Shown: piece by piece, positions 1 to 6,796 of the stretch | How the letters are laid out: each line of letters starts with the position of its first letter | Position numbering within the stretch: the stretch's first letter is position 1 | Source: a virus | Taxonomy: Duplodnaviria; Heunggongvirae; Uroviricota; Caudoviricetes | Strand: one strand, 5' to 3' | DNA length: 6,796 nt | Virus record (IMG/VR): IMGVR_UViG_2778261418_000010 | Location: 1-6,796 of that record | Translations under genes and position numbers: made by a program | The notes under the pieces: model-generated | Told to the model about the DNA's origin: nothing | The model's input: the letters and a program-made list of their open reading frames with translations, nothing else | Database searches by the model: none

Positions 1-3000
1 CTCACAATATAGTTAAATGCGATGTTTTTGACGGTGTTTTCCGCGTTACCAGCAGCGTTAACGGTGATGGTGTGTCCGTGTGAGCCAATCGCAACGGAGT
101 GCGTATGAGCACCAATACCGACAGTATGCGCGTGTGCACCTGCACTTGCAGCAGTACCTGACACCGGGTGGGTATGCGCTCCGGCTGACGATGTGCCAGT
201 ACTCGAGCCTGCACGAGACGCACCTTTGAGGGCTTTATCGCCCTGCTCGGTATTGCCAGATGGGTAACAGGCAACCGTGTGTGTATGTGCCCCTGCAGAA
301 GCAGCCGTACCACTGACACTATGGGTGTGCGCTCCGGTGTTATTCGTGGTCTTAGTACCATAATCAAACGAACTGGTTGTTTTCGTCCCCAAATCCGTAC
401 TGGATGCACTGGCACTGTGGGCATGCGATTTAATACCGTCCTGTTCCTGAGACAATACAGCGCGACCACTGGCGGGTTTGCCCTTAATTGTCCATCCACG
501 CAGATCAGGGATCACACCAGATGGGTAAGCGGTTGCAAGTTTCGGGTAGGCAGATTTGTCAAAAGTCTGCCCCTGCATCAGGGCATAACCAGACGGAACG
601 GTATCTGATGGCCACGGGATTGGTGCGCCAACTGGATAAAACTCTGCCGGAGGATGGGCAGTAGTGTAAAGCTGCGCCCACGGCGACCAGTTGGCGTCGG
701 TTGTATCCCGTCGCGAACGAATAAATGCCGGAGCATGTGCACCGCTTGTACCACTCCACCCGATAAGCAATTCGCCCTCTCCAGCAGCATTCGCACCTCT
801 CATATGAAGCACATTGCCATAAGCAGTGGGGTAGCCATTGTTGTACGCCTCGTACATTTGAATGCCAGCAGTGCCTTGAGTAGAGCCGCTTAACGCCGTA
901 ACTCGGCCACGAGATACCAATGTATTAATGTTGATATCGCCTGAGCCATCAAACTTAACACCATTGATGTTTCTCGCTGTTTGCAACTTCGTAGCTGTTG
1001 AAGCATTACCCTTAATGCCGCCATTAACGGTAAGCGCCCCGGTTATTGTGCCTCCTGTTAATTTCAAAAAGAGCGCATCAATCCATCCAGCGAAACCCGG
1101 TTTATTGATATACAAGTTGCCATCATTGGCAAATATGCCACCACCTGGTGTTCTTAATGGCTGTGACATATCCGCCAAAGTTAACTGGCCTGACATTGAA
1201 TCACCAGCTCGATTAAAGTCCCGTCTCCAGCCTGGCGCATAATTGTCACCGTGGTTGATGTAGGTAAATTGTGCCTTGACGGTTCCGCCGTTCGTTGCGG
1301 TCGTGGGGGTGGTGATGCGAATAGTCATAGCCTCTCGAACCCCCATAACCTCAACTACAGCGCCAGAAAGTTGTATATTTCCACAACCGGTATCCGTGAT
1401 GATTTTATTGGCAGCGTAAGCCCATGAGCCTTTGCACATCCAGTATGAATGATTGAACGCCCCCTTAGACTCCAGCCACTCGATAAATTGCGCCGTCGTC
1501 CAGTTATTGCTGTCTCCTCCGATGCTGATATTGCCGCTGGCAGCTTTCGCTGCGCCAATATTTTTTACGAAGGTGTCTTTATCAGGTATATCTGCCCCGT
1601 TCTGGTTTTTCCGAAGGCGTGTTTCAGCGTTGTCGTATGCGGACTTTACCGCTTTCGGTGTTGCAGCGAGCGTCTCAGATTCGCTGCTGGTCTCACTGCT
1701 GAGCTGTACTATCCCTTTTTTCGTCGTGCTTGCATCCTCAAGCGCCACGGCAGATGCAATATCCTCTGCCCGTTTTGCAGCTGTCTCGGCGCGCGTTGCC
1801 GCGGATTCAGCCGCATTTTTGCTCTGAGCTGCCTCCGTCGCACTTCCTGCCGTCTCTGTCGCCTTCGTGGATGCCGTTGACGCACTCTCTGCCGCCGCTG
1901 ACGCCTGTCTGGTCGCCTCATCTTTTGAATCAGACGCAGATGATGCCGATGATGCCGCCGAACTGGCTGACGATGCGGCTGCCGTCTTTGAGGATTCTGC
2001 ACTGGTTTCCGACGCTTTCGCGTTCGTCTCGGATGTCTTCGCTGCGGAAGCTGACCTCGCTGCTGCCGTGGCCTGCTCAGTGGCTTCGCCAGCCTTCGTT
2101 GTGGCTGTTGAAGCGGACGATGCGGCGCTTTCTGCCGATTTCCCGGCGGCGGTGGCACTGGCGGCTGCCTCCTCTGCCTTAATGGATGCTTCACGGGCCG
2201 ATGATGCAGCTACTGTCTCAGAGCCTGCCGCAGCTGAGGCGCTCTGTTCCGCTGCCGTTTCAGAAGACTTAGCATTCGTCTCTGACGTTTTTGCCGCCTT
2301 CGCGGAATTTCCTGCCGCCGTTGCCGAGGAGGCTGCACTGCTGGCGCTTGTGGAGGCGTTCGTTTCTGATGATTTTGCCGCCTCTTTGGAGGCAGCCGCA
2401 TCTCTGGCTGAAGTGGCGGCTTCTGACGCTTTCGTCGTCGCAGTGGATGCAGAAGTGGCTGCTGATTGTTGTGACGCTGCCGCATTCGTTTCTGACGTTT
2501 TCGCGGCACCGGCACTGGTGGCCGCCGCGCTTTTTGAGGACTCTGCAGCGGCAGCACTTTTTGACGCTTCCGTGGCCTTTGTTGATGCCGTTCCTGCGCT
2601 GGAAGATGCTGACTGAGCAGACGATGCGGCCTGTTCGGCGGACGTGCTGGCTGCGCGTGCTGAGCCTGCGGCATCAGTCGCATGGGTTGCCGCCTCACTG
2701 GCAGATGTGCTGGCATCGCTGGCTGACTTCTTCGCGGCTGCCGTGTTCTGTGCCACTACGGACGCGTTACGCGCCACCTCTTCCACCATCAGTTCAAAAC
2801 GGCGCAGTGCCTCCGGACGGGCATCATCCTCCGTCATGGCACCGAGAAAATCATTCAGCGTCCCCGGCTTTGAATCCTCATACACGGTGATGGTCCCGGC
2901 ATGTGACGGCGGGAATCCTTCCACCATCAGAATAACGCTGTACTGACCGTACTCAACGTCCATGCTGTAACGCCCGGCTTCATCCGGATTTTCTGAGGCC

Positions 3001-3113
3001 AGCGTGTTCACCACGACCGTGGTACTGTTACGTTTTGCCTTCAGCTGAATGGTGCAGTTCTGTACCGGTTTCCCTGTTCCGTCTTTCAGTACACCTGAAA
3101 TCTTTACTGCCAT
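1..3113 (-). CDS. stf: Side tail fibre protein Stf, partial (1037 codons in window; last few codons and stop lie beyond position 1)
   Basis: Minus-strand frame with codons at [3k,3k+2] checked by hand for TTA/CTA/TCA on the plus strand: none from 3 to 3113. ATG at 3113-3111. Translation starts [37 protein letters not shown], continues through an Ala/Ser/Thr-rich shaft with (A/S)AKTSETNA repeats, and ends in window with GAHxH motifs and ...[23 protein letters not shown]. The N-terminus, shaft and C-terminus match lambda Stf as I recall it. Absent from the ORF track only because no stop falls inside the window. Confidence 0.9.
63..345 (-). repeat. His-rich G-(A/S)-H-x-H motif repeats in the Stf C-terminal tip domain (coding)
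   Basis: Hand translation gives GAHTHS, GAHTHT, GAHTHP, GAHAHT, GAHTHS and GSHGHT within about 95 residues. Corresponding DNA repeats of gcacacac/gcgcatac type are visible on the plus strand. Confidence 0.5.
2016..2502 (-). repeat. Degenerate in-frame repeats encoding (A/S)AKTSETNA(K/A)(A/S)S in the Stf shaft
   Basis: Four copies of K-(T/S)-S-E-T-N-A in the hand translation, at about 2016-2040, 2274-2292, 2358-2376 and 2484-2502. Plus-strand DNA shows the recurring motif attcgt(c/t)tctgacgtttt at about 2273-2297 and 2482-2506, and gttcgtctcggatgtcttcgc at about 2019-2040. Confidence 0.5.
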
Positions 3114-3115
3114 AT

Positions 3116-3122
3116 TCACCCC
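3116..3122 (-). promoter_or_regulatory. Putative Shine-Dalgarno for stf (minus-strand GGGGTGA)
   Basis: Minus-strand sequence GGGGTGAAT immediately precedes the stf ATG at 3113. The spacing is short, so the exact SD core is uncertain. Confidence 0.35.
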
Positions 3123-3124
3123 AC

Positions 3125-3151
3125 AAAAAAGCCCGCCTGAACCGGCGGGCT
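3125..3151 (-). terminator. Rho-independent terminator downstream of lom, directly upstream of stf
   Basis: Plus strand 3131-3137 gcccgcc and 3144-3150 ggcgggc form a perfect 7-bp GC-rich stem (8 bp with 3130/3151) around a 6-nt loop. Plus-strand A6 at 3125-3130 gives a U6 tract right after the hairpin on the minus-strand transcript. The plus-strand side has no U-tract, so it is oriented for minus-strand transcription. Confidence 0.7.
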
Positions 3152-3177
3152 GTCATAACACTGTGTTACCTGGCTAA

Positions 3178-3777
3178 TCAGAATTTATAACCGACACCCA
3201 CGATGAAACCGTCAGTGCGCCAGTCACCACTGCCGGAGCCTTCATAAGCAATATCAATGGCCACGGATTCGGTCGGGTTAAACTGCACGCCTGCCCCCCA
3301 CGCCAGAGACGTGTTGCTGTGGCGACTGTCATCACTTCCGGTCAGCACATCGTGCGTTTTCCCCTTGTTGTCAGTTACGCGGAGATAATCCCCGGAGAAA
3401 GTCGAAACACGGCTGTAAGCCACACCCGCCATCGCATATGTGCTGAACCATTCATTCACGCGTACAGACGGCCCCGCCATCACGCTGAACCAGCGGTTAC
3501 GAACGGAATCTTCATGCCAGCGGGTATCGCTGTAATGCGTTTTTTGCTCATCTTCGGCGTTGGCATAACTGAATGACGTCACCATCCCAAGCGTGTCCGT
3601 AAATTCATAACGGTATTTCACGTTAATACCATTCAGATCATCACCGCCTGGCATTTTCGTATGAGCATGAATATATCCTGCGCTTAATGTGCTATGGTGT
3701 TCTGCTGCACTCACTGTCGTACCCGATACGGTCAGGAATACTGCTGCGGACAAAAGAATTGCACATACTTTACGCAT
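3178..3777 (-). CDS. lom: Outer membrane protein Lom (Ail/Lom/OmpX-family beta-barrel), 199 aa
   Basis: ORF track 3178..3777. N-terminal Sec signal peptide MRKVCAILLSAAVFLTVSGTTVSA with an A-x-A-type cleavage site. C-terminal ...GFIVGVGYKF ends in Phe, as is typical of outer-membrane beta-barrels. Strong similarity to lambda Lom as I recall it (GINVKYRYEFTDTLG, RWHEDSVRNRWFSVMAGPSVRVNEWFS, NTSLAWGAGVQFNPTESVAIDIAYEGSGSGDWRTDGF). Position between J and stf matches lambda gene order. Confidence 0.95.
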   Translation of the reverse strand: MRKVCAILLSAAVFLTVSGTTVSAAEHHSTLSAGYIHAHTKMPGGDDLNGINVKYRYEFTDTLGMVTSFSYANAEDEQKTHYSDTRWHEDSVRNRWFSVMAGPSVRVNEWFSTYAMAGVAYSRVSTFSGDYLRVTDNKGKTHDVLTGSDDSRHSNTSLAWGAGVQFNPTESVAIDIAYEGSGSGDWRTDGFIVGVGYKF

Positions 3778-3782
3778 AATTA

Positions 3783-3788
3783 CCTCTC
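3783..3788 (-). promoter_or_regulatory. Shine-Dalgarno for lom (minus-strand GAGAGG)
   Basis: Minus-strand GAGAGGTAATT precedes the ATG at 3777-3775; GAGAGG sits 5 nt upstream of the start. Confidence 0.5.
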
Positions 3789-3801
3789 ACTTTTCTGCAA
3801 T

Positions 3802-3825
3802 AAAAAAGGCGCCATTTCTGGCGCC
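3802..3825 (-). terminator. Rho-independent terminator between J and lom (tJ-like)
   Basis: Plus strand 3808-3813 ggcgcc and 3820-3825 ggcgcc form a 6-bp all-GC stem around a 6-nt loop (atttct). Plus-strand A6 at 3802-3807 gives minus-strand RNA GGCGCCAGAAAUGGCGCC-UUUUUUAUU. Lies 20 nt after the J stop codon (3845-3847). Confidence 0.7.
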
Positions 3826-3844
3826 CGGTTTGGGTTTTAAACAT

Positions 3845-6796
3845 TCAGCTGATACTGATACCAGCTGTGGATTTTTTCATAATGACCACAAGCAAATCGC
3901 TGATAGTCGCTGAAGGATAATAATTCCCGTTTGACGCAGAAACTGAAAACTCAAGAGTTATTCCTCCAGAACCGGCTGGCATATCCATGATGCCTGTGTA
4001 AATGGCTGTAACATCGTTGGTCGATTTGTCATAAATTACAGAACCATTCTTTTTTACAACAAGACGACAGGATGAATAATATTCACTGTTTGTGGATGCC
4101 TGCCGGTGCTTCGCCCCACGAAACGCAACAGCAGGAATGACAATTTGTCTGTCATATTTTTGATCATCATCTATCCTCACAGTAATCGTACCTGACGGCC
4201 ACGGTTTAAATTCTGATTCGCGCGGATCATGTGGAAAAGCCTTTCCCACCGCTTTGACAATATCGCCCTCAATCTGACTGGCAGACAGTTTTCCTTTTAT
4301 CAGACAGTTCTCATTAATCGTGACATTGTTGAGCGTCCCGGCGTTCGCATTCACACTGCCACTGATATCCGCATTTTTAGCAGTCAGCTTTCCGTCAGGT
4401 GTCAGGGAGAATGCCGGAGGATTACCACCACTGGTAATCGTGGGAGCAATAAGGAACTTGATCAGCGCCTCATTAATAAACGTCTGTCCGCCCTGTGTGA
4501 CCAGTGCAGGAGTGGTGTTACCATTCGCCGGGTTAATAAATGCCACCCGGTCTGCAGCCAGAAGCACCTGACTCTGCATGCCGTCCTGGGTATTCTCAAT
4601 ACCGGCACCGATACCCGCAATATAAAGGCGTCCATCCTTCATCTGTTGCAGCTTCACAGCCCACATACTGTTCAGGTTATTACTGGTGTCAACCTGAACC
4701 TTCTGTATCTGCTGGATTGCTGCGCTCTGGTCTTTCAGTGTCTTGTTAACGGTCTCGGTGATTTCATTGCTGACATTCGTAATGGATGTCCTGATTTCAG
4801 CCAGATCCGGGGCAAGCTGACCGTTATCAATTTGTGTCCACAGCTCCTGGGCCAGATGTGTTTTCCCTATCTCTCCTTTGAAAAAATCCAGATAGCCGGA
4901 CGCATCATTACTCGGCTGGCCAACAGCTTCCACAAATACCGATTTGCCGACGGTGTTCACACTGCGAACATAAAAATAATAATCATGGCCCGGCCTGATA
5001 TTGATACTGGCAGCTATCCAGCACTGCGCCGTACCAAGATAACGCGCGCTGGTTTCAACCTGCCTGATATCGGTAATCCGCTTTTCCGAAAACCAGAACT
5101 CAAACTGTACCGTCGGATCATAAACCGCAAGATGCGGCGTGGCGGTGATCTGAAAATAACCCGGCGTCAGCTCAATCCGCGACGGTGCTGCCGGTGCGGC
5201 AATCCGGAACGATACCGATGCCGGATCGCCCTGCTGCTCCCAGGCATTTGCCGCCCGGACTGTCAGCCTGTAGTTTCCCAGCGCCAGTTGCGTGAAGCGG
5301 TATGTGGTTTCCGTCGTCCGGGCTGTGCTGACCAGCCGCTCACTGCCGTCTTCCGCTGTCACGGTCAGACGAAGCAGGAAGCTCACGCCCTTCACCACCT
5401 TCGGCGTATCCCAGCGCGCCAGCACCTGATATTCCCCGCTGTCTGCGGTGACTTCGGCAGTCAGGTGCTGCACCGCTGGCGGCGTGACACCATTCACCGT
5501 GCCGCTCTGGTCGCCGTCAAAGTGCGCCCCGTTATCCACGATGGCTTCTTTTTCCGGTATATGCTGCACGGCGGTGATGGCATACGTGCCGTCGTCGTTC
5601 TCACGGATACTCACGCAGCGGAACAGGCGCTGGCGCAGCGTCGGCAGCTTCAGCCCCCACACGCTGTATTCAGCAACGCCGTCAGGAACCCGGCTCACTT
5701 TCACCTTCACGCCGTCGGTGACGGACTGAACCTCCACGCTGACCGGATTGCCACTTCCGTCAACCAGGCTTATCAGCGTGGTACCGGAGGATGGCAGCGT
5801 GATTTCACGGTCGAGCGTCAGCGTCCGGGTCTGGCTGTTTACCGCCAGCACGCGCCCGCCGGTGCTGATACCGGCATAGTCATCATCGCAGATTTCAATG
5901 ACATCGCCCGGTACATGGCGAAGCCCTTCGGCACCCACGCTGAAGTCCACGGTCTGCGTTTCCAGCAGTTCTGTTTTAATCAGCCACAGCCCGGCGCGAT
6001 GTGCCTGCCCCCGGCTGGTACAGCCAAAGGCATCCATCTTCGTGACGTTACGACCGTAACGGGCAATGGCCTGCGTGTCCTCCACAAGCTCTGTCGCCGT
6101 CTCCCAGCCGTTATTCGGGTCAATCCAGTTCACCTCAACGGCATTATGGCGGTCCTTCAGGGCGCTGAAGCTGTAGCGGAACGGCGCGCCATCATCCGGC
6201 ATCACCACATTACTGCGGTTATAGGTCCACACCTTATCCGAGGGTCGGTCCTGCACGAACGTCAGCGTCTGCCCGTTCCATACCGGCATACAGCGCATCG
6301 CCGAGCAGAAATCACTGAGCACATCCCACGCCTTACGCTGTGTGGTCAGGTACGCATTACAGGTGATGCGCGGCTCCGTGCCGCCAAAGCCGTCCGGCAC
6401 TGACTGGTCGCAGTACTGGCCGATGACATACAGCGCCCATTTATCGACATCCGCCGCACCAAGACGTTTTCCCATGCCGTAGCGCGGATGGGTCAGCATA
6501 TCCCACAGACACCAGGCCGGGTTGTTGCTGTATGCCGGTTTAAACGTTCCGTCCCAGATACCGCTGTATTGCCGCGTCTGCGGGTTATAATTCGACGGCA
6601 CCTGCAGAATACGCCCGCGAAGATGATAATTACGGCTCACCTGCTGGCTGCCGAACTGCTCCGAATCCACCTGCACGCCGACCAGTGCCGTGTTCGGGTA
6701 GCACTGTTTCACATCGATAATTTCGGTGTATGACGACCAGAGCGTTTTGTTCTGCAGCTGGTCTGTGGTGCTGTCCGGCGTCATCCTGCGCATCCG
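3845..6796 (-). CDS. J: Host specificity / central tail fibre (tail tip) protein J, partial (984 codons in window; N-terminal ~150 aa beyond window end)
   Basis: ORF track 3845..6793, and the same frame stays open to the window edge at 6796. Translation ([54 protein letters not shown]..., ...[47 protein letters not shown]...) matches lambda gpJ as I recall it over most of its length. Stop TGA at 3845-3847. Synteny J-lom-stf as in lambda. Confidence 0.93.

Follow-up and report, generated by a model that had tools for sequence, protein, structure and literature searches.

A side tail fibre gene of a lambda-like prophage with a mosaic, three-module centre

The window, by which we mean the whole 6,796-nucleotide stretch of viral DNA analysed here, carries part of a tail gene cluster on its minus strand. 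An open reading frame at positions 3845 to 6793 covers the C-terminal 982 codons of J, the tail tip or central fibre gene, whose product has 99.4% amino acid identity to gpJ of the Escherichia coli CH4799 prophage and 75% to lambda J. It is followed by lom, encoding an Ail/Lom outer-membrane protein of 199 residues (3178 to 3777; annotated as Lom in the syntenic loci L001, L002, and L004), and then by the side tail fibre gene stf (3 to 3113), whose unbroken translation carries the Pfam families phage_tail_N, Collar, and Phage_fiber. No NCBIfam family was found on the whole Stf protein. The stf gene starts with an ATG at 3113 and runs for 1,037 codons without a stop to the left end of the window. 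Judging from two identical C-terminal proteins (P0001 and P0002, 573 to 585 residues, ending NYIVRLA), the missing part is the last three codons (RLA) and the stop; proteins identical to the window Stf are already in public databases. In identical loci L006 to L008, tfa (Caudo_TAP, PF02413) lies directly after stf, and the order J-lom-stf-tfa is common to lambda, PhiR29_1, and CH4799. The gene belongs to a lambda-like prophage, and its product to the lambda-type Stf family of side tail fibres, which assemble as trimers on the virion and speed adsorption.

The first 134 residues (StfN, positions 2712 to 3113) form an N-terminal tail-attachment domain that matches PF08400, the family that makes the collar on the tail, over its full length (1 to 134; E = 8e-72), with 91% identity to lambda, 98% to StfR of the E. 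coli K-12 Rac prophage, and 100% to CH4799; residues 1 to 94 match the lambda Stf chain in PDB entry 9E7M (E = 7e-52). An Ala/Ser/Thr-rich shaft follows (aa 135 to 455, positions 1749 to 2711) and corresponds to the proximal coiled coil of Ur-lambda Stf, in the domain names of PMC12617516. In a global alignment it is collinear with the lambda shaft apart from one gap, where it is longer by ~105 Ala/Ser-rich residues (approximately aa 301 to 405, positions 2213 to 1899). Tandem duplication as the source of these extra residues found no support, with one weak 21-nt repeat from Tandem Repeats Finder in the shaft and no internal duplication from self-BLASTP. Rac StfR (1,120 aa) has the same shaft length and matches aa 1 to 521 without gaps at 92% identity, and CH4799 Stf (1,124 aa) is likewise gap-free over the N-terminal domain and shaft, at 98 to 100%. 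The initial annotation, which was made from the sequence letters and called these regions lambda-like, was right about the relationship, but the N-terminal half is of the Rac StfR/CH4799 type, and the shaft is the longer one. A conserved fibre repeat ending in LAATPKAVK (aa 456 to 490, positions 1644 to 1748) is the last stretch in common with lambda before the replaced centre; it is 86% identical to lambda aa 351 to 385 and 100% identical to both CH4799 and P276M, the fibre gene of a DLP12 remnant. This repeat falls inside a match to the Mu S fibre 5YVQ (aa 437 to 524), and in protein P0043 a Phage_fiber_2 repeat lies on the homologous motif. Over aa 1 to 490 as a whole, Ala makes up 28.6% and Ser 18.8% of residues.

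Between LAATPKAVK (aa 482 to 490, positions 1670 to 1644) and a downstream landmark motif (aa 827 to 837, positions 635 to 603) lie 336 residues (aa 491 to 826, positions 1643 to 636), close to the ~338 first estimated. The same landmarks enclose 146 residues in lambda (Ur-lambda) Stf (aa 386 to 531 of 774), not the roughly 190 of the initial annotation, and no alignment or detectable similarity was found between window aa 491 to 826 and lambda aa 386 to 531. The lambda protein has been mapped as a hinge (394 to 422), a distal coiled coil (423 to 525), and a gp37-like receptor-binding domain that binds OmpC (PMC12617516). Its hinge and distal coiled coil (aa 394 to 525) are absent here; they characterise lambda's allele and do not define the annotated family. 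Gene position, the Ala/Ser-rich shaft, the KGIVQLSS...LAATPKAVK repeat, and a gp37-type tip are held in common. The centre is richer than the shaft in Gly (13.1%), Asn (8.3%), and Trp (2.7%), as had been noted from peptides that we located at aa 537 (NWTTAQF) and at aa 706 to 730 (25 residues), but it is not rich in Cys (2/336, 0.6%). Pfam searches of aa 491 to 826, even at E ≤ 1, returned no family, including Gp34_trimer (PF21446), which in relatives P0043 and P0060 is confined to sequence beyond the part corresponding to the beginning of the centre (cenA, below), or overlaps the end of that part. An AlphaFold2 (AF2) monomer model of the whole 336 residues (18-sequence alignment) had a pLDDT of 47 and was set aside for fold searches.

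The centre, proposed as a single exchanged module at 620 to 1640, was indeed exchanged, but it is not one module; it consists of three independently distributed ones, here cenA, cenB, and cenC. The first, cenA (aa 491 to 634, positions 1212 to 1643), begins with a conserved linker and is a neck and globular domain of the Mu S'/P1 S' type, with aa 494 to 637 matching residues 177 to 320 of PDB 8JU3 (E = 1.8e-66), the Mu G(-) fibre gp52 (PMC11821841). The P276M remnant carries an identical cenA (100%), a tail fibre gene of E. coli plasmid p2017-01-4CC_1 has one at 90% identity, and PhiR29_1 has one at 72%; both Cys residues and the Trp residues of the module are kept in alignment A1. Past the linker it is not present in lambda, CH4799, or StfR, the latter two having after the linker (aa ~513 to 516) a longer domain of their own where cenA stands here. 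The fibres that have cenA in common with the window include Mu S' (gp52), P1 and P7 S', and P1-like plasmid fibres; unlike Stf, the Mu/P1-type proteins are myophage baseplate fibres with another N terminus, sited in P1, P7, and Mu in invertible segments. The cenA-like domain of Mu sits in the variable, specificity-associated half of S', so that cenA may contribute to binding in Stf too.

The second module, cenB (aa 635 to 711, positions 981 to 1211), is a 77-residue insert ending in GNAS that had no Pfam or PDB sequence match, and its first 74 residues were matched by a single representative (P0189) among the best 150 listed. The third, cenC (aa 712 to 826, positions 636 to 980), is a widespread fibre knob, entered through a fibre repeat from aa 706 and otherwise all-beta, with 2,746 cluster representatives at E ≤ 1e-3, often with several matched stretches per protein. 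Its AF2 model (pLDDT 84.7) is a monomer, and Foldseek with it retrieved the C-terminal region of T4 gp34 (4UXG and 5NXH; probability 1.0, TMq ~0.5, rmsd 6 to 10 Å), the R-pyocin fibres 6CL5 and 6CL6, and Mu 8JU3; across the gp34 domains and R-pyocin knobs the probability was 0.99 to 1.0 and TMq 0.36 to 0.50, at 14 to 18% sequence identity, a likeness at fold level only. The predicted fold of cenC may be that of a T4 gp34-like shaft knob. In a PDB sequence search with cenB and cenC together, whether as a single sequence or as a 27-sequence profile, the one match was that of the short fibre-repeat motif of cenC to the stalk of phage L Dec (6E3C).

PHROG families put these segments at different positions, and other fibres combine them differently. 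P1-like S' proteins have cenC, cenA, and then the tip, which is gp37_C-like or a separate adhesin. P2-like H proteins (P0060 to P0120) and Stf of the lambdoid PhiR29_1 lack cenB, so that cenA joins cenC directly over a short linker; they resemble the window in cenA, cenC, and a gp37-type tip (70 to 74% identity; PhiR29_1 tip, 85%), although the P2-like N terminus is PF12571 instead of PF08400. In CH4799 cenB-cenC occurs without cenA, and in P0043 a P2 H-like tip comes after cenA-cenB.

The remainder of the protein (aa 827 to 1037, positions 3 to 635) is a gp37-type receptor-binding tip made of a collar domain (PF07484, aa 829 to 876) and a needle. Residues 825 to 1037 align end to end, with small indels, with residues 28 to 239 of the T4 gp37 tip chain in 2XGF (phmmer E = 3e-85), and these last ~210 residues are all that is common to the two proteins. 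Seven HxH motifs (aa 897, 929, 943, 980, 994, 1003, and 1012) each align with a T4 HxH; we take those of 2XGF to be iron ligands, and metal binding in the window protein is predicted from the motif. The tip is 85% identical to that of PhiR29 Stf, 68 to 69% to T4 gp37, and 67.6% to lambda, and at 633 nt it compares with 630 nt in T4 gp37 and 723 nt in lambda (30 residues shorter here, with indels). Given these identities and the length similar to T4 gp37, the tip is no more lambda-like than T4-like, so the initial annotation's view of a lambda-like C terminus holds for the relationship but describes a generic gp37-type tip. Its most variable stretch lies between HxH motifs 2 and 5 (aa 931 to 990, positions 144 to 323), with 51 to 68% nucleotide identity to every allele compared and 84 to 98% in the flanks; from the gp37 alignment, this is presumed to be the distal, receptor-contacting end of the needle. 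Tips of the gp37 type bind OmpC and/or LPS, but since this stretch differs from both T4 and lambda, the receptor is not to be inferred from relatives.

As an alternative to a structural role, the centre, and especially cenA, might be a second determinant of receptor binding or specificity, a lateral site acting alongside the gp37-type tip. This reading would fit the match of cenA to a part of 8JU3 labelled S', which is presumably the invertible variable part of the Mu fibre, the position of cenA directly before the distal tip in P1-like S' proteins, and its exchange as a unit between alleles. However, a complete tip with all seven HxH motifs follows the centre, and the gene's most variable stretch is in that tip and not in the centre. 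The 67 to 76% conservation of cenA among fibres whose tips are very dissimilar is more in keeping with a scaffold than with a specificity element, the model of cenC points to a shaft knob, and the centre had no match to a lectin, depolymerase, or other enzymatic family. We therefore regard a second specificity site as unlikely and favour a centre that is structural rather than receptor binding.

Base composition had been taken as a further sign of a distinct central module. The reported counts are exact (27/60 for positions 961 to 1020 and 40/60 for 2101 to 2160), and the contrast is real by segment, with a GC content of 0.59 in the N-terminal domain and shaft, 0.497 in the centre, and 0.54 in the tip. 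It mostly reflects the Ala-rich shaft: GC2 there is 0.78 (Ala/Ser/Thr codons) and GC3 is 0.51, compared with a GC3 of 0.55 in cenA, and lambda's own stf has the same contrast (shaft, 0.603; centre, 0.527). Because shaft GC is driven by the second codon position and lambda is alike, the contrast is weak evidence of foreign origin, and after codon-position analysis and the lambda control we rejected GC as a marker of it. Only cenB is distinctly low in GC3 (0.39), with the lowest GC of the gene (0.459). One could see in cenB a distinct functional element, such as a hinge altering the reach of the fibre, or, together with cenA, a lateral second binding site allowing dual receptor use, but we hold this to be a speculative and improbable reading; what prompts it is the low GC3, the few relatives, and the lack of a structural template.

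Comparison with the nearest alleles places the exchanged tracts at approximately 2104 to 1038 and 1037 to 1, rather than at 1640 to 625. Nucleotides 1 to 1010 of stf are identical to those of the CH4799 prophage, with which the window is 98.8% identical in nucleotides over positions 1576 to 6796, J and lom included; the remaining 2.1 kb of stf has 678 differing columns, and the distal parts of CH4799 and StfR are only 57 to 88% identical to the window. Perfect identity to CH4799 stops at 2104, and similarity to P276M starts at ~2007 and is uninterrupted from 1970, which defines a first breakpoint zone at 2007 to 2104. Positions 1970 to 1038 differ from P276M by 1 mismatch in 933, and 236 informative sites favour P276M, a run broken at one site, where the window agrees with neither parent. 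Identity to P276M stops at the second breakpoint (1037/1038, aa 692/693), in a conserved motif; since this is within cenB, one breakpoint is inside the supposed module. Protein P0043 turns into its P2 H-like tip at the same motif. Below 1038, where P276M and CH4799 hardly differ from each other, the window shows 167 differences from these two. This pattern of identity to CH4799 and P276M is far beyond chance. With the best relatives differing from segment to segment and identity ranging from 100% down to ~40%, the initial annotation's main proposal, a mosaic Stf with a horizontally exchanged middle as in enterobacterial prophage fibres, is borne out.

No near-identical donor of window positions 1 to 1037 was found in complete E. 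coli genomes, where the best match was 90 to 92%, and for this reason we infer a third source for everything below 1037. In a one-genome-per-species collection, the exact 50-mer across the second breakpoint was absent, and a scan for related loci returned partial relatives only, in E. coli, [Erwinia] mediterraneensis, Pectobacterium, and Photorhabdus.

Divergence in situ of a lambda-like centre, with insertions but no exchange, would agree with flanks clearly related to lambda. It is a highly improbable history, however, for a gene whose identity to CH4799 steps from 100% to 37 to 63% within a few codons and in which 932 of 933 nucleotides are identical to a different locus; moreover, no residual similarity to the lambda centre was found, and the module order is shuffled in other fibres. 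An assembly chimera from collapsed repeats among several prophage fibre genes of one genome might also be suspected, since short-read contigs L007 to L009 end inside the repetitive shaft and an E. coli genome has fibre genes at a median of 3 places (maximum, 16). The same allele is nevertheless present in four independent assemblies, three of them 100% identical over the parts covered, including L007 (1 to 2552) and L009 (1 to 2444), and L006 is 99.8% identical over the whole window. L006, L007, and L009, which come from different samples, span both breakpoints, and the reading frame is intact over 1,037 codons; an artefact of this kind is therefore extremely unlikely.

How the tracts were brought together is less direct. 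Din-family invertases (Cin/Gin/Pin) could have exchanged the modules by site-specific recombination, as in Sandmeier's proposal (cited in PMC3945230). CH4799 and K-12 Rac do have a pin-type recombinase gene just downstream of tfa, and the invertible location of the P1, P7, and Mu relatives of cenA points the same way, yet no recombinase was called downstream of tfa in identical loci L007 and L008. The sequence AAACCNNGGTTT, which we take to be the Din-invertase crossover core, was not found in the window, even at one mismatch. The recent tracts are instead flanked by long high-similarity stretches and their junctions lie in conserved coding motifs, as homologous exchange predicts. For lambda there is experimental precedent: its stf/tfa was shown to undergo such exchange with the Rac and Qin remnants, and horizontal transfer of stf has been called "well documented" (PMC3945230). 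We accordingly give exchange by invertases only a small chance and favour homologous recombination.

Taken as a whole, it is very probable that the modular centre of this Stf (636 to 1643) is a distal shaft and that the allele was built by homologous recombination. The fibre would be a trimeric chain in which a lambda/Rac-type tail-attachment domain and a long Ala/Ser-rich coiled-coil shaft lead through the conserved fibre repeat to a Mu S'-type neck and globular domain (cenA), the 77-residue spacer (cenB), and a gp34-like knob (cenC). Receptor specificity would reside at its end, in a needle tip of the T4 gp37 type, stapled by iron and folded with the help of Tfa, the chaperone encoded downstream. 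In place of the hinge and distal coiled coil of lambda (146 residues) stand three modules that recur, separately and in other orders, in fibres of Mu, of P1-like and P2-like phages, and of other lambdoid phages. Resident prophages or remnants of prophages would have recombined where short linker motifs are conserved (LAATPKAVK, the linker at the start of cenA, and the motif at the second breakpoint), giving a product with a CH4799-type left part (J, lom, and stf nt 1 to 1010), a DLP12-remnant tract (1970 to 1038), and a third distal tract (1037 to 1).

Reports of modular exchange of tail fibre segments between lambdoid, P1, P2, Mu, and T-even phages go back to 1989 to 1994, and a patchwork produced by recombination of interchangeable fibre segments is an ordinary, already known pattern. 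Such exchange has already been exploited to retarget lambda particles, and engineered chimeras of lambda Stf with P2, K1F, and K5 have proved functional (PMC11338833). The value of this locus is as a clean, finely mapped natural example, with junction motifs that tolerate module swaps and could guide the design of chimeric fibres. It is also an example of a prophage-remnant fibre gene with a nearly identical 933-nt tract in an intact prophage gene.

The window has three genes, all of them on the minus strand: J, of which the C-terminal 982 codons are present (3845-6793), lom (3178-3777) and the side tail fibre gene stf, which begins with an ATG at 3113 and leaves the window at its left end after 1037 uninterrupted codons. 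Two database relatives, P0001 and P0002, share C-terminal 573 to 585 residues identical to Stf and end 3 residues further (...NYIVRLA); stf thus lacks only three codons and the stop. This very protein is already public in these two entries, annotated as tail fibre protein, and fibre-module exchange as a phenomenon is already in the public record. Where the identical sequence recurs in other loci, stf is directly followed by a gene for tail fibre assembly (Caudo_TAP), and the prophage end lies beside dinI and prfC.

The initial annotation, which read Stf as a mosaic with lambda-like ends and an exchanged, compositionally distinct centre, was confirmed as a whole with corrected numbers; its interpretation is supported with three qualifications, concerning the types of the ends, the number of central modules and the weight given to GC content. 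Searches of Pfam and solved structures along the chain placed an N-terminal domain at aa 1-134 (PF08400; the lambda Stf chain of 9E7M matches over aa 1-94), a Mu S fibre match (5YVQ) at aa 437-524, a match to residues 177-320 of the Mu G(-) fibre S'/gp52 (8JU3) at aa 494-637 (E 1.8e-66), and a T4 gp37 tip match (2XGF) at aa 825-1037 (E 3e-85), with the identities of 8JU3 and 5YVQ taken from PMC11821841. The tip carries a Collar domain and seven aligned His-x-His motifs. Both ends are related to lambda but not specifically lambda-like, being of Rac StfR type and gp37 type: Escherichia coli K-12 Rac StfR aligned without gaps over aa 1-521 (92% identity), whereas the lambda shaft is ~105 residues shorter. 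The tip is as near in sequence to T4 gp37 (68-69% identity, length about equal) as it is to lambda Stf (67.6%, lengths differing by 30 residues).

Both landmarks that had been used to delimit the centre are real: LAATPKAVK at aa 482-490 (nt 1670-1644) and an 11-residue motif at aa 827-837 (nt 635-603), with 336 residues between them (nt 1643-636). Between these landmarks Ur-lambda Stf (KT232076) has 146 residues rather than ~190, and the two centres did not align. The two peptides quoted from the centre were found in the Stf translation, and its enrichment in Gly, Asn and Trp holds, but with two Cys only it is not Cys-rich. A Pfam search of the 336 residues returned no match, and a poor monomer model of the full centre was set aside. 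The centre is distinct but not one unit, and comparison with 120 database relatives divided it into three parts: cenA (aa 491-634), a Mu/P1 S'-type domain; cenB (aa 635-711), absent from PhiR29_1 Stf and many P2-like gpH-type fibres, which have a short linker between cenA and cenC; and cenC (aa 712-826), a widespread domain that follows a TATKLxTARxINGVxFDGSxDI fibre repeat. cenC matched 2746 cluster representatives at E<=1e-3, commonly with several stretches per protein. A predicted model of aa 689-826 from a 27-sequence alignment (pLDDT 84.7) had as its best structure matches the T4 gp34 globular shaft domains (4UXG, 5NXH), R-pyocin fibre knobs and the Mu fibre; the modelled likeness to these structures would be at the level of fold only.

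Related fibres carry these parts in other arrangements. Stf of the window has cenA, cenB, cenC and gp37-type tip; P2-like fibres and PhiR29_1 have cenA, cenC and gp37-type tip; P1-like S' proteins have cenC, repeats, cenA and a different tip; the Stf of the E. coli CH4799 prophage has another domain at the cenA position, then cenB and cenC; the relative P0043 has cenA, cenB and a P2 H-like tip; and lambda Stf and StfR lack all three. PHROG families likewise hold the segments at varying positions and in both orders. These sequence comparisons show that the modules are shuffled among fibres, beyond simple swapping.

The GC counts offered as a sign of exchange were exact (27/60 and 40/60), and raw GC does differ among N terminus plus shaft (0.59), centre (0.50) and tip (0.54), but this is a weak argument for foreign origin. 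In the shaft the excess comes from second codon positions (GC2 0.78), a consequence of its ~29% Ala and its many Ser/Thr residues, while GC3 is 0.51 in the shaft, 0.55 in cenA, 0.46 in cenC and 0.46 in the tip. Since the contrast recurs in the stf of lambda itself (shaft 0.603, centre 0.527), GC reflects fibre architecture, and its use as a sign of foreign origin was ruled out by the codon-position split and the lambda comparison. The sole outlier in composition is cenB (GC 0.459, GC3 0.39). Several ORFs of 150 to 250 codons in other frames on both strands of the Ala/Ser-rich shaft (window 1709-2890; e.g., 1867-2616, plus strand) are artefacts of biased GCN/AGC composition.

Comparison with the two nearest alleles resolved the joins. 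The CH4799 prophage is 98.8% identical over window 1576-6796, and the first 1010 nt of its stf (window 3113-2104) are identical, but identity falls to 37-63% over aa 511-630. The DLP12-remnant fibre gene of E. coli strain P276M, whose similarity begins at ~2007, the start of the remnant, has one mismatch in 933 nt over window 1970-1038. Downstream, past nt 1037, CH4799 and P276M hardly differ from each other, whereas the window departs from both at 167 sites, and identity to the best complete E. coli genomes is no higher than 90-92%. In a three-way alignment, P276M-type informative sites fell in two runs of 111 and 125 with one non-parental site between; sites before about gene nt 1107 cannot be relied on, as nothing in the remnant is related to that part. 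These steps indicate an allele of at least three sources and contradict divergence of the centre in place. One junction, at aa 692/693, lies inside the module originally proposed; P0043 diverges at the same linker motif, and CH4799 and StfR diverge at a motif beginning ...RLRK(N/D), so that junctions coincide with short conserved linker motifs. That the mosaic is a misassembly is contradicted by independent contigs from different samples carrying the same joins: L006 (99.8% identity over the whole window), L007 (100% over 1-2552) and L009 (100% over 1-2444) each span both breakpoints, and L008 (100% over 1-1981) spans the second only. L006 (6637-9758; Logan assembly ERR14712748) has the same stf called as two ORFs of 298 and 585 aa, in a matching stretch 3 nt shorter than the window, which points either to a genuine disruption or to misassembly of the repetitive shaft.

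The most economical mechanism for the exchange is homologous recombination among prophages and remnants that share a host. Recombination of lambda stf/tfa with Rac and Qin has been demonstrated experimentally, and stf transfer among unrelated phages has been termed well documented (PMC3945230). Functional chimeras have also been engineered by joining lambda Stf to the distal parts of P2, K1F and K5 (PMC11338833). In the P276M remnant (L003, 5637-7701), upstream of ompT, stf has lost its 5' end and is annotated as a 601-aa "phage tail protein," and tfa is frameshifted. The 933-nt tract common to this remnant and the intact window stf likely reflects the passage of sequence between functional prophages and remnants. 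Fibre-associated invertases possibly acted in older exchange events, but no crossover core was found in the window, and the identical loci show no recombinase call downstream of tfa.

Cryo-EM and cryo-ET of Ur-lambda Stf mapped StfN (aa 1-91), a linker, a proximal coiled coil (aa 102-393), a hinge (aa 394-422), a distal coiled coil (aa 423-525) and a gp37-like receptor-binding domain that binds OmpC (PMC12617516). By analogy, the centre of this Stf would take the place of the hinge and distal half-fibre, forming a knobbed distal shaft that would position the needle tip. Receptor specificity would reside in the tip, mainly in aa 931-990, the gene's most variable part, situated between HxH motifs 2 and 5, with 51-68% identity to every allele compared. 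A second binding function of cenA or cenB is possible but unsupported.

Other features of the window and its copies were also observed. The last ~150 codons of J (3845-4294, minus strand) have 42% identity to lambda J, against 83% for the rest, with low GC (0.43; GC3 0.37) and no nucleotide match to lambda or PhiR29_1. This divergent C terminus suggests that the central fibre probably has a receptor-binding domain other than lambda's LamB-binding one, and that a second mosaic joint probably lies here. A 724-codon ORF antisense to J (4229-6403, plus strand, codon-aligned frame) exists because J lacks TTA, CTA and TCA between codons 131 and 860 of the window part, and is most likely a by-product of codon usage rather than a gene; six of the eight TCA codons fall in the diverged, low-GC last 125 codons, and in the 751 codons of the lambda J fragment TCA occurs once. 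Lom (3178-3777) is strongly unlike lambda Lom over most of its length, while its last ~25 residues (...IDIAYEGSGSGDWRTDGFIVGVGYKF) are identical, which looks like another local mosaic joint. The prfC genes beside the identical prophage end (L007, 4489-6075; L008, 3918-5504) have only 87% identity to CH4799 prfC, compared with 98% for the dinI-region prophage end, suggesting that the hosts of these copies are probably not E. coli. This is consistent with the lack of a full-length match in 5,426 complete E. coli genomes; source labels name Salmonella enterica serovar Rissen and Escherichia sp. GZ89.
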